A DNA stretch of 62,553 bases from assembly GCA_028867335.1 (NCBI GenBank), contig JAGWGN010000003.1, positions 1 through 62,553 on the forward strand, written 5' to 3'. Below the pieces are notes generated by a model that was not told the origin of the DNA, made no database searches, and was given only the letters and a program-made list of their open reading frames with translations. Source of the stretch: Candidatus Micrarchaeota archaeon. GTDB lineage: Archaea; Micrarchaeota; Micrarchaeia; Micrarchaeales; CABMGC01. Shown piece after piece: positions 18,969 through 46,172 of the stretch. Each line of letters opens with the position of its first letter. The first letter of the stretch is position 1. The position numbers were made by a program, and so were the translations under genes.

Positions 18969-19018
18969 TTGTTCCGCTAAAAACAACGTTTCTTAAATGC
19001 TTGATTGCAAGTATTATC

Positions 19019-19276
19019 GGCAGCAAGGCTGGGAGCCAGGGGTTCCCAATCCGCAAATCCCCTTTAGGCGGGCCGCATGCTTGTCGAGTGTTACAGAGTA
19101 GTGCAAGGCCTAGGCCGAAGCGTTGAGGTTTCGCCTCTAGTGGTAGTTGCATATTCGAACCGGGCCAGGCCGGAAGGAGCAACCCTAAGTCTATGTTTAC
19201 TATGCTCTAGAGATACGGGGCTGAGTGTAGGCCTAGATAACCTTGCAGTGCGCTGCAATGCAAGGCGGCTGCTGCC
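19019..19276 (+). ncRNA. ffs: Signal recognition particle (7S) RNA
   Basis: Helix 8 GGGCCAGGCCGGAAGGAGCAACCC; terminal helix GGCAGCA/TGCTGCC; Alu-like 5' hairpins; helix 5 pairings TGCAAGG/CCTTGCA and CTAGGCC/GGCCTAG; TATA-like TTAAAT about 25 nt upstream. Confidence 0.88.
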
Positions 19277-21049: not shown

Positions 21050-21110
21050 TGAGTGATGATTGAGGTAATCTCTGAGCTTTTGCTGTGAAGATTGATAGGC
21101 GGTCTGACAA
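21050..21110 (+). ncRNA. C/D box sRNA (2'-O-methylation guide)
   Basis: Box C GTGATGA 21053-59; 12-nt guide; D' CTGA 21072-75; C' GTGAAGA 21085-91; 12-nt guide; D CTGA 21104-07; followed by T6. Confidence 0.82.
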
Positions 21111-44007: not shown

Positions 44008-45234
44008 TTATTCTTTCTCGCGCTGCTTTGCATAGCGGTAGAGGCCTATTGAGAGCATACCGTTCGTTATCAGGATAACCAGGAAGACAATGTCTATCAG
44101 ATTAGGTATTACTATTCCCACGGTGGCCGGAAGGGTTGCTATTATTGCAGGGGCAAGCCCCTGTGCCACATAGAACCTTATAACTGTCGTGTCGCTCTTC
44201 TTGTGCTTCTTGTCAGAGATTATCCCGCTTAGAATCCCAGAGGTAAGGTACCTTATCCCCAGCATTATTATTGACATACCCACAGCTAGCGCTATTAGGA
44301 TGCCTTGCGGGCCTTGGGGGTTGAAGAGCATCCCTATGTAGACAAAGAAAAAAGTGCTTACAAAAAACGTTATCTCCTTCTGGTAGACCTTTATGTGGGA
44401 GATGTCCTGGAGCACGGGAGTAATCACGCTTCTTACGAGGAATTTCATGTCTGGAAGGTTAGCAAGAAGCATTCCGAAAATGAAAGTCGCCAGGGCACCG
44501 TTGAAGTTGAGGTACTCTGCGCTTCCGTAAACCGCAAGGACTATTGTCAGGGTGAGCATCCAGCTGTATTCGCTGCTGTACTTCTTGAACTTCTTGAGCA
44601 CAAAGACCCAGAATGCGGCAAAGAGAATCCCTATTAGTATCGAGCCCACTATAAACCCGAAGAGCTCGGCAGCGACGAAGTTGACGGTGTAGGTGCCTGT
44701 CGCCAGTATGTTGAAGAATATCAGGGGAATGACCAGGCTGAACACGTCGTTGAATACACTCTGGTATGCGAGCGTGGTCTTCATGCCATCGCTTATCTTT
44801 ATCACCTTGAAGAGGGCCGGAAGGGTTATGGAGCTGGTGCCGGAGAGGGCAAAGCCAGCCATCAGTGCCTGGACAATGCTCCAATTTTGTAAATAGTAGA
44901 GAATCAAGGTCACAGCCACACCAGTTATCACGCTGGTTGCAAGTGTGAATTTCGAGGCCTTGAGTAGGATGTCCCTGAGAGATGAGAGGCGTATGTTCAT
45001 TCCGACATCGAATAGGACAAACGCTATCGCTATTGCCGTTACAAACGGGGAGACCTGCGCCACCACGCTGCTAGAGGAGGTGTCCACAAGGTGCAGAATC
45101 GGCCCTATCGCAAGGCCTATTAGTAAAAGGGGCATTATGCTGGATATCTTGAGGCGGTAAAACATCGAGTTTAGTATGTACCCCAGGAAGACTATCCCTG
45201 CGAAAAGCAAGAAGAGCAATGCGACTTCGATCAT
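44008..45234 (-). CDS. Cation/H+ antiporter (CPA1, NhaP-like)
   Basis: About 12 TM segments, LFDVG, SVFNDV, FFFVYIG, GLAPA. Confidence 0.8.
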   Translation of the reverse strand: MIEVALLFLLFAGIVFLGYILNSMFYRLKISSIMPLLLIGLAIGPILHLVDTSSSSVVAQVSPFVTAIAIAFVLFDVGMNIRLSSLRDILLKASKFTLATSVITGVAVTLILYYLQNWSIVQALMAGFALSGTSSITLPALFKVIKISDGMKTTLAYQSVFNDVFSLVIPLIFFNILATGTYTVNFVAAELFGFIVGSILIGILFAAFWVFVLKKFKKYSSEYSWMLTLTIVLAVYGSAEYLNFNGALATFIFGMLLANLPDMKFLVRSVITPVLQDISHIKVYQKEITFFVSTFFFVYIGMLFNPQGPQGILIALAVGMSIIMLGIRYLTSGILSGIISDKKHKKSDTTVIRFYVAQGLAPAIIATLPATVGIVIPNLIDIVFLVILITNGMLSIGLYRYAKQREKE

Positions 45235-45249
45235 ATTTTCACCATTATG

Positions 45250-45374
45250 CGCCAGGGTAGGGATTTGAACCCTAAAGCCCGTGAGGGCACCGGTTTGCTT
45301 GTCGCATCATCTCCGAAGATCAGCTCTTGAGAGAATCTCAAGACCGGCGCGTTACCGGATTCTGCCACCCTGGC
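45250..45374 (-). tRNA. tRNA-Ser(TGA) with 41-nt intron at 37/38 (intron 45296-45336)
   Basis: Acceptor GCCAGGG/CCCTGGC, G73, anticodon stem CCGGT/ACCGG, long variable arm, bulge-helix-bulge with CTTG/CAAG central helix. Confidence 0.9.
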
Positions 45375-45482
45375 ACTACACTCTTTTGCGCGTGCAGTTT
45401 TATAACCATTTCTGGCTAGGCGTTCTGGGGCATTAAACGTATACTGGGAAATACTTATTAACAGCCAAATCAAAGCAGAAGC

Positions 45483-46172
45483 ATGGTAGGGACACGAAAG
45501 ATCTGCGCGGCAATAATGCCGCAGAGCACACACGAACTTCGGGGAATGCTTAAGGAAGCTGCAAGGCAACGGCCAGATTACCTTGAGCTTAGGCTCGACA
45601 GACTACAGGTGCAGGAGATTTCTAGTTCCTTGGCAGAGTTGGGAAGTATCAGGGCAGCAAATACGGTTCTTACTTTGAGAAGCAAAGAGGAGGGAGGGCA
45701 CTACGAAGGAGGCGACATGGAAAGGGCGAAGATTCTTGATATACTCACCAAACAAAACGCTATGTTCGTTGACGTTGAGGAGCCTTTTGCTAGAAGAAAC
45801 AGGGTTATTGTGAAAAGGATGAGGGAGGACGGAGCACGGGTTCTTTTATCATACCACAACTTTTACACGACGCCCATACCTAGAGTGCTAGGCAACCTGT
45901 GTGGCGAAATGCTTGAGAGAGGGGACGTTGCGAAAATAGTAACGACCGCCAACACGGCATTAGACAACCTGAAAATATTCAGGCTCTACGAGATGGCGAA
46001 TGCGGACGGGAAGCTACTTTCTTTTGCAATGGGGGAGTTGGGGCAGATATCCAGGATAATGAGCATAACGCACTACGGAGCTCCATTCACCTACTGCTCG
46101 CTTGGAGAGCCCATCGCCACAGGAATGCTGAGCATAAAGAAAATGAGGGGAATAATCAGGCACTTGCCGTGA
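45483..46172 (+). CDS. aroD: Type I 3-dehydroquinate dehydratase
   Basis: ELRLD, RSKEEGG, SYH, AKIV, MGELGQISR. Confidence 0.85.
   Translation: MVGTRKICAAIMPQSTHELRGMLKEAARQRPDYLELRLDRLQVQEISSSLAELGSIRAANTVLTLRSKEEGGHYEGGDMERAKILDILTKQNAMFVDVEEPFARRNRVIVKRMREDGARVLLSYHNFYTTPIPRVLGNLCGEMLERGDVAKIVTTANTALDNLKIFRLYEMANADGKLLSFAMGELGQISRIMSITHYGAPFTYCSLGEPIATGMLSIKKMRGIIRHLP

Follow-up and report, generated by a model that had tools for sequence, protein, structure and literature searches.

The closest described counterparts of the element considered here are the guides carried by introns of archaeal pre-tRNA-Trp. In Haloferax volcanii and in Pyrococcus (sR50), the intron at position 37/38 targets nucleotide (nt) 34 of its own transcript by the N+5 rule, and the anticodon loop can enter either the guide duplex or the splice fold, but not both (PMC4090602, PMC11408192, PMC7994747). 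The Trp intron is about 65 nt or longer and has two kink (K) motifs that serve sites 34 and 39. In the available excerpts of a 2014 and a 2024 review, the Trp intron is the sole tRNA intron named as the carrier of a guide, with the word unique used for it in the review of 2014 (PMC4090602, PMC11408192). The element examined here is the 41-nt intron of a pre-tRNA-Ser(UGA) gene on the minus strand, positions 45250-45374, of a 62,553-nucleotide contig of a Candidatus Micrarchaeota archaeon (the window, meaning the whole stretch of DNA that was analysed). The window is contig C33 of a 0.96-Mb archaeal assembly (G000) of 62 contigs that is 82.7% complete. Like the Trp intron, it sits at 37/38, appears to address its own nt 34 by the N+5 rule and has guide and splice pairings that compete for the anticodon loop. 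Unlike the Trp intron, the Ser introns are 31-48 nt long with one D'/C' motif and one target, in agreement with the much smaller, single-K-turn form proposed in the initial annotation, and the host and target base are Ser U34 rather than Trp C34. The sequences support a putative C/D guide nested in an intron, for which both the host tRNA and the target base are new and whose minimal form, with a single K-motif, is restricted to one lineage.

A second precedent comes from Nanoarchaeum equitans, whose elongator tRNA-Met has a 66-nt intron. Randau (2012) described this intron as containing a stable RNA of C/D-like type, in which a single box D is accompanied by a single, degenerate box C; a methylation guide role was proposed for it at a time when only the Trp example was known (PMC3491384). 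As in the Micrarchaeota Ser case, the host is a DPANN archaeon, and the intron resembles the class-wide Met(CAU) introns described below. It differs from the Ser intron in its Met host, greater length and GC hairpin, and the Ser version is limited to one order. A full-text literature search found no description of a guide in a tRNA-Ser intron. The ARMAN-2 endonuclease papers (PMC3239211, PMC3488258) do not mention the boxed Ser intron in the main text as excerpted, and their supplementary intron tables could do so. Because of the N. equitans precedent, the suggestion that this arrangement was undescribed stands, within the literature searched, only for the Ser target and the minimal form.

Nucleotide 34 is also the target of free-standing guides that act in trans. 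These serve Leu(CAA), Leu(UAA), Met and Trp in Pyrococcus, and include sR26 (C34 of Trp), sR27 (U34 of Gln), sR45 (C34 of Val) and sR46 (U34 of Thr) in Pyrobaculum (PMC7994747, PMC6009581); 2'-O-methyluridine 34 (Um34) is present in Sulfolobus tRNAs (PMC7668247). The trans-acting small RNAs (sRNAs) have both C/D and C'/D' motifs and guides of about 12 nt; they place the same kind of modification at the same site, and the excerpts of these papers report none for tRNA-Ser. In architecture, the Ser intron recalls the artificial half-mer C/D ribonucleoproteins (RNPs), in which one K-turn and one guide are assembled on L7Ae, Nop5 and fibrillarin (PMC3608112), although a half-mer on the Ser intron would be natural, cis-acting and conserved. 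The K-loop form of the sRNA C'/D' motif, consisting of CUGA, a short loop and RUGAUG, is the one found in the Ser introns of most relatives (the K-loop is named in the references of PMC3608112), but in sRNAs it is always accompanied by a terminal C/D K-turn, which the Ser intron lacks.

The Rfam tRNA model matched positions 45250-45374 of the minus strand with 40 bits (E 5.5e-05) and a 44-nt insert past the anticodon; this match and a re-reading of the sequence define a gene of 125 nt up to the discriminator G73. That the product is tRNA-Ser(UGA) follows from the long variable arm, from G73 as discriminator and from the CT-TGA-GA loop, and the gene is the only one for this tRNA found in the assembly. 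ARAGORN overlooked it with default settings and, when introns were allowed, mis-parsed it as Ala(tgc) with a 41-nt intron. The 5' exon (nt 1-37) occupies 45337-45374, with the anticodon U34 G35 A36 at 45340-45338, and the 3' exon (nt 38-73), placed by the Rfam alignment and re-reading, occupies 45250-45295. Between them, the intron (45296-45336) is inserted at the canonical 37/38 position; its boundary may slide by one A, leaving the product unchanged.

On the same strand, the antisense, or putative guide, element TCTCAAGA lies at 45325-45332 and comprises N9 to N2, the numbering running upstream from the CTGA box. It is the perfect complement, over 8 bp, of nt 31-38 (TCTTGAGA, 45336-45343), pairing with nt 38 (the first intron nucleotide, i1) to nt 31, so that N5 (45328) is opposite U34 (45340). 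The G at N1 (45324) does not pair with the target; it pairs with C45304 and forms the fifth pair of the non-canonical stem of the K-turn. Next come the box D'-like CTGA (45320-45323), which is the non-bulged K-turn strand, a UC/GA C-stem closed by a UUCG loop (TC-TTCG-GA, 45312-45319), a 3-nt GAU bulge (45309-45311) and the box C'-like core GAUGC (45304-45308). The intron ends in the tail GACAAGCA (45296-45303), which contains the distal CAAG (45298-45301) and whose CA, with A38, makes up the 3' bulge of the bulge-helix-bulge (BHB) splice motif. Re-reading of the coordinates recovered every element listed in the initial annotation, including the 8-nt complementarity and the pairing of the fifth nucleotide upstream of CTGA with U34. 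CUGA and GAUG can form the tandem sheared G.A/A.G pairs, a U.U pair and a G-C pair. Together with the 3-nt bulge and a stem or loop next to the non-canonical stem, these features specify a K-turn or K-loop at the level of sequence only. So read, the intron element is a D'/C'-type kink-turn in which U34 faces the fifth base upstream of CTGA.

Orthologs were collected from 60 relatives of the same order with the whole gene, rather than the motif, as the DNA query. Full-length intron-bearing homologues, 77-97% identical, were found in 57 of the 60; the other three assemblies (G010, G031 and G037, 82-94% complete) gave exon-sized matches only. The set comprises 69 full-length copies, the gene of the window plus 68 others, of which 68 are distinct; 59 were parsed automatically and 10 by eye. 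Two unpublished assemblies, G003 (L007 for Ser, L199 for Met, L229 for Trp) and G050 (L027 and L183, both Ser), contribute to these counts, to the tallies of 30, 24 and 142 copies given below, and to the homologue, Met and Trp, phylum-sample and Nop5 tallies.

A lack of conservation of the boxes and of the guide register in orthologous introns was one of the outcomes that the initial annotation had named as counting against its reading, and both proved to be retained. The string [T/C]C[A/G]AGAG-CTGA, a loop of 2-11 nt and NTGATG occur in 69/69 copies, which is the internal D'/C' motif of archaeal C/D sRNAs, and the antisense element abuts box D' with N5 opposite nt 34 in 69/69. CTGA itself is invariant in all 69 and TGATG in 68/68 distinct copies, as is the T of the bulge among the orthologs. 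N1 is G in 69/69, and its partner is C in at least 90% and T otherwise. In alignment A1, invariance among the intron columns is limited to C-[A/G]-AGAGCTGA, to TGATG and to the G in the distal CARG; the remaining positions vary in sequence and in length. The description of the intron as a textbook kink-turn agrees with the sequence of the window gene, but the UUCG-capped stem proved to be a trait of its own genus and a few others, the genus variants TCC..GGA lengthening the stem, whereas most relatives have a 3-4 nt spacer instead (e.g. CTGA-TTA-GTGATGC), that is, a K-loop.

The guide helix was examined in the 68 distinct copies. Pairing was found in 68/68 for nt 31-N2, nt 32-N3, nt 33-N4 and nt 35-N6, in 66/68 for nt 36-N7 and in 48/68 for nt 37-N8. 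At the target itself, nt 34-N5 was U-A in 58 copies, C-G in 8 and C.A in 2, which is the covariation of guide and anticodon that the initial annotation had suggested looking for. None of 500 shuffles matched either the observed percentage of pairing or the covariation score, and sliding the partner by one column lowered the guide pairing from 88.6% to 52-58%. A larger set of 142 distinct copies, including some selected by a pattern that imposed no base at nt 34 or at N5, gave U-A 110, C-G 26, C.A 6 and U.G 0. Within one genus, the locus L183 is compensated and L184 is not, a contrast that depends on the unpublished G050 and shows ongoing change.

The same register was observed in the introns of two other tRNAs. 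The tRNA-Met(CAU) gene (G000:C55:38724-38847, minus strand; L193/L196) has a 47-nt intron in which TATGAGT is antisense to nt 31-37. This intron is present at full length in 55 of the 60 relatives, and the 30 best loci, those of the relatives being L197-L225, were read. Their consensus, CTCATA | TGC-N3-GCA - T - TATGAGT - G - ATGA - GC-loop-GC - (G/T)AT-GA - ... TAAG-AA | A, contains a stretch complementary to nt 31-37, followed by a single base, an NUGA box, a genuine hairpin, a bulge of 3 nt and GA, and the hairpin stems covary (e.g. GCC-GAAA-GGC and GCCC-TTCG-GGGC). By a looser pattern, the Met form was found in families f1 (16/20), f3 (26/32), f4 (3/6), f5 (1/2), f7 (3/3), f8 (2/2), f9 (2/18), f13 (2/5) and f14 (1/1), with 0 matches in the control. 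The tRNA-Trp gene (G000:C4:944-1081, minus strand; L194/L226) has a 65-nt intron with two local K-motifs that was matched in 43/60 relatives at E<=1e-10; 24 loci, with relatives L227-L249, were read. Its first K-motif is a Met-type hairpin K-turn with no evident guide. Ahead of the second lies TTTGGA(G/A)C, an antisense to the anticodon loop, and this part of the intron reads TTTGGAGC, one base, ATGA, 3-6 nt and RTGA. No guide was seen for nt 39, which is C in this tRNA.

A script that located the best antisense 7-mer to nt 31-37 and then required NNGA after exactly one base returned the register in 69/69 Ser introns (all CTGA), 30/30 Met introns (ATGA 28, ACGA 1, GCGA 1) and 19/24 Trp introns. 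Three unrelated antisense sequences therefore share one register, which places nt 34 at N5. In other archaea, Cm34 of Trp and Met is a C/D-guided modification (PMC7994747). The comparison supports the Ser guide being part of a wider, putative Micrarchaeota habit that also covers Met and Trp, and the independent origin proposed in the initial annotation is doubtful because a like module is present in this lineage's introns for Met and Trp.

The intron can also adopt a splice fold. Its distal CAAG (45298-45301) is complementary to nt 32-35, which gives a BHB motif with a central helix of 4 bp (CTTG/CAAG) between 3-nt bulges (AG|A and CA|A), as in canonical archaeal introns; the outer intron helix is only 2 bp in the window gene. 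Because the guide helix and the BHB helix both use nt 32-35, the two pairings are mutually exclusive, as the initial annotation had pointed out. In the 68 distinct copies, 91% of the cells of the central BHB helix are paired (nt 32 68/68, nt 33 64/68, nt 34 62/68, nt 35 52/66), and among the CGA genes, compensation was seen in 8/10 for the guide helix versus 4/10 for the BHB helix, so the predicted guide helix is the better preserved of the two. Whole pre-tRNAs were predicted to fold into non-cloverleaf structures, with the two conformers at about equal energy (-51.1 versus -50.8 kcal/mol), and for this reason the comparison of folds was limited to the anticodon arm plus intron; K-turn pairs are outside the nearest-neighbour model in both cases. 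In nearest-neighbour folding of 68 of the 69 copies, the minimum free energy structure was the guide hairpin in 44/68 and the BHB fold in 4/68, and the guide with the anticodon stem was more stable than the BHB in 55/68. Three RNA runs yielded contigs of relatives with the intron still present and without splice joints, which are uninformative as to expression, splicing and modification.

We consider it reasonably probable that the intron acts in cis as a minimal guide of the C/D type, with a single K-turn, and directs 2'-O-methylation to nt 34 in competition with the BHB fold; all the computational tests that could be applied favoured this reading. The antisense element directly upstream of the D'-like CUGA would pair, in the primary transcript, with the anticodon loop over nt 32-37/38 and possibly nt 31. 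The CUGA would join with the C'-like GAUGC in a K-motif, which is a kink-turn in this genus and a K-loop in the majority of relatives, and L7Ae and then Nop5-fibrillarin would bind to it. By the N+5 rule, fibrillarin would methylate the 2'-OH of the wobble nucleotide, giving Um34 in Ser(UGA) and Cm34 where the gene is Ser(CGA) with a G at N5. Refolding would then allow nt 32-35 to pair with the distal CARG, and the resulting BHB motif would be cut by the splicing endonuclease and the exons joined by the ligase. Since each intron has one K-turn, a Nop5 dimer may hold two pre-tRNAs at once or have one of its sites unoccupied.

The genome encodes the proteins that this scheme calls for: a fibrillarin (220 aa, 269 bits), one Nop-domain protein and two L7Ae-family genes. 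It also has three strict canonical C/D sRNAs, and the anatomy of the intron is like the C'/D' half of these sRNAs, one of which reads CTGA-CTA-GTGATGA.

Several observations weigh against methylation by the intron: 1) neither the intron nor the pre-tRNA contains a terminal pair of box C (RUGAUGA) and box D (CUGA), 2) the C' of the intron ends in C, not A, 3) the guide duplex is 8 bp here, already short for a guide as the initial annotation conceded, and usually only 6-7 bp in relatives, C/D guides usually being about 10-12 nt, 4) an A is found opposite C34 in 2/10 CGA genes of the unbiased set and in 6/32 overall and 5) the tree of the 142 rows (about 125 nt) is poorly supported, with one independent U34/C34 pair on supported branches. 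The best, unsupported tree has 14 and 13 changes, and no significance is possible. The A.C tolerated at the target in CGA genes implies that pairing at this position is not indispensable for the gene. The proteins raise a further difficulty. The Nop5 (269 aa; G000:C4:17034-17687, minus strand; L002:1477-2283) aligns through residues 29-261 to Pyrococcus Nop5 122-357 in a PDB alignment, so the N-terminal domain, to which fibrillarin is tethered in the solved complexes, appears to be missing. Relatives are similar, the stop-to-stop Nop5 frames being 246-331 aa in 20 of the 24 matches listed, this genome included, and mostly 270-331 aa in the relatives. A Pfam NOP5NT search of the genome gave no match, but the controls in known archaea were also below the cut-off. 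The nop5 and fibrillarin genes are on different contigs, and a 152-aa open reading frame upstream of fibrillarin was considered as the N-terminal domain and was not recognisably so. Moreover, titles in the reference list of PMC3608112 state that efficient methylation requires symmetric assembly of the C/D and C'/D' motifs in the archaeal systems studied.

The single K-turn without a terminal C/D motif, the truncated Nop5, the greater predicted stability of the guide hairpin and the tolerance of A.C in some CGA genes would all suit a different function, in which the K-turn or K-loop is a structural or timing element that binds L7Ae without methylation, either masking the anticodon loop, so that the pre-tRNA stays in an unspliceable fold until it is remodelled by L7Ae or another factor, or aiding folding for a broad-specificity endonuclease. 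Masking requires no fixed one-base spacing between the antisense element and the GA box, yet this spacing was found in the Ser, Met and most of the Trp introns and is precisely that which the N+5 rule prescribes for nt 34. Moreover, N5 changes together with nt 34 in most CGA genes, and a reduced genome has retained fibrillarin and canonical C/D sRNAs. We therefore regard a purely structural role as rather unlikely.

It is improbable that the excised, possibly circular intron is a small RNA that acts in trans on other pre-tRNA-Ser, mature tRNA-Ser, rRNA or in another role. There are precedents, since the Haloferax tRNA-Trp intron RNP has been reported to be active in trans (PMC4090602, PMC11408192) and archaeal tRNA introns can be circularised (PMC7994747). 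However, the sole conserved antisense element is 6-8 nt and matches the anticodon loop of its own host tRNA, a pairing that would be weak in trans and adequate in cis, and the rest of the intron is unconserved, so that no second guide is evident.

The pattern CTGA-N2-12-RTGATG was found six times in the window versus 3.4 expected, and 11 of 100 shuffles reached six; the bare box pattern is not significant alone, and the composite conserved in 69/69 orthologous copies exceeds chance. A chance resemblance, with fortuitous boxes and the ordinary anticodon-intron pairing that archaeal 37/38 introns must have anyway, is scarcely credible, as it is contradicted by conservation in orthologs that are only 77-97% identical, the boxes and register being invariant in introns that otherwise vary, the ordinary BHB partner (the distal CARG) being present in addition and less conserved than the proximal element, and the reversed pattern giving 0 matches in 301 genomes versus 120 genomes with the motif.

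The cis-acting guide competing with the BHB fold can be placed in a broader scheme, which we offer tentatively and regard as possible though doubtful. Micrarchaeota may have a portable intron cassette (in Trp and Met and, in one order, Ser) that forms a half-mer RNP with the short Nop5, methylates the wobble ribose in cis, acts as a splice checkpoint and replaces protein-only wobble-U chemistry. The cassette would run from a complement of nt 31-37 through a single base, NNGA and then a hairpin or loop to NNN-GA, and the checkpoint would operate if the guide hairpin were the default fold, blocking the splice motif until modification is complete. No Elp3 (TIGR01211) was found above the cut-off in this genome or in five relatives of 92-97% completeness (G009, G023, G038, G044 and G051), whereas all four archaeal control genomes passed. 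This order may lack the usual xm5U34 route. Without Elp3, ribose methylation may be the wobble-U modification left to these archaea, which also speaks for the cis-acting guide itself.

If the cis-acting guide is real, it would be the smallest natural C/D-type guide known, since the introns of 31-48 nt contain a single K-loop and an antisense of about 7 nt. No intron-borne guide would have been known before for a serine tRNA, nor for a wobble uridine. Work on model archaea has led to the view that guided methylation is efficient only with two symmetric K-motifs, which the Ser intron would call into question. Moreover, the guide would offer a selective reason for the persistence of introns in extremely reduced genomes and would tie the order of modification to splicing through competing folds.

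Measured against the established classes, the Ser intron is partly of the Trp type. It is a canonical 37/38 intron with a complement of its own anticodon region, but it has one motif and one antisense element rather than two K-motifs with guides to nt 34 and nt 39. The Rfam C/D families gave no match in 45100-45500 at E<=10, the output there consisting of the tRNA and three chance rows.

The motif is confined to one order. Among 301 sampled genomes of the phylum, it was found in 49/54 of family f1 and 70/74 of family f3 (119/128 for the order), and in 0/172 genomes sampled from 28 other families. Five genomes of other orders were examined: Ser(UGA) is intron-less in G064 and Ser(CGA) is intron-less in G071, and the Ser(CGA) introns of G070 (35 nt) and G068 (17 nt) have no boxes. 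A scan of one genome per species over 185,579 species returned at least 119 stretches with the motif. Nearly all titles among the matches listed were Micrarchaeota, and a few had other bin labels with the same tRNA; the bacterial rows among them that were spot-checked failed the tRNA parse. The motif is present in the complete genome titled Candidatus Micrarchaeota archaeon ARM-1 (L053), an organism that grows in stable co-culture (PMC8784108).

Of the three canonical C/D sRNAs, the one in the window lies on the plus strand at 21053-21107 and reads GTGATGA, a 12-nt guide, CTGA, a 9-nt loop, GTGAAGA, a second 12-nt guide and CTGA. The other two strict C/D sRNAs lie at G000:C4 4618 (minus strand) and G000:C11 3547 (plus strand).

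Other tRNA genes of the assembly have unusual structures. A tRNA-Ile(UAU) gene (G000:C11:176693-176781, plus strand) with a 14-nt canonical intron was mis-parsed by ARAGORN as Ser(tga). The existence of this gene points to elongator Met, rather than Ile2, as the product of Met(CAU). The tRNA-Ser(GGA) gene (G000:C11, about 132080-132240, minus strand; L195) has two introns, one of about 13 nt at 37/38 and one of about 16 nt in the T-loop, and was not called by ARAGORN whether introns were allowed or not. The tRNA-Ser(CGA) gene (G000:C5:176-278, plus strand) is interrupted at the non-canonical position 30/31 by an intron of 15 nt that lacks the boxes, and tRNA-Asp(GTC) (G000:C11:81152-81257, minus strand) has an insertion in the variable/T-arm region and was mis-parsed by ARAGORN as Gln. 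The 3' part of tRNA-Trp recurs as a 100% identical copy on a second contig (G000:C59:50159-50235), probably an assembly duplicate at a contig end, and the Ser gene of G030 is likewise found at two contig ends (L010 and L192). Finally, the signal recognition particle (SRP) RNA of the window (19018-19271, plus strand) was matched best by the Rfam model Bacteria_large_SRP (70 bits), not an archaeal model, despite the archaeal genome.

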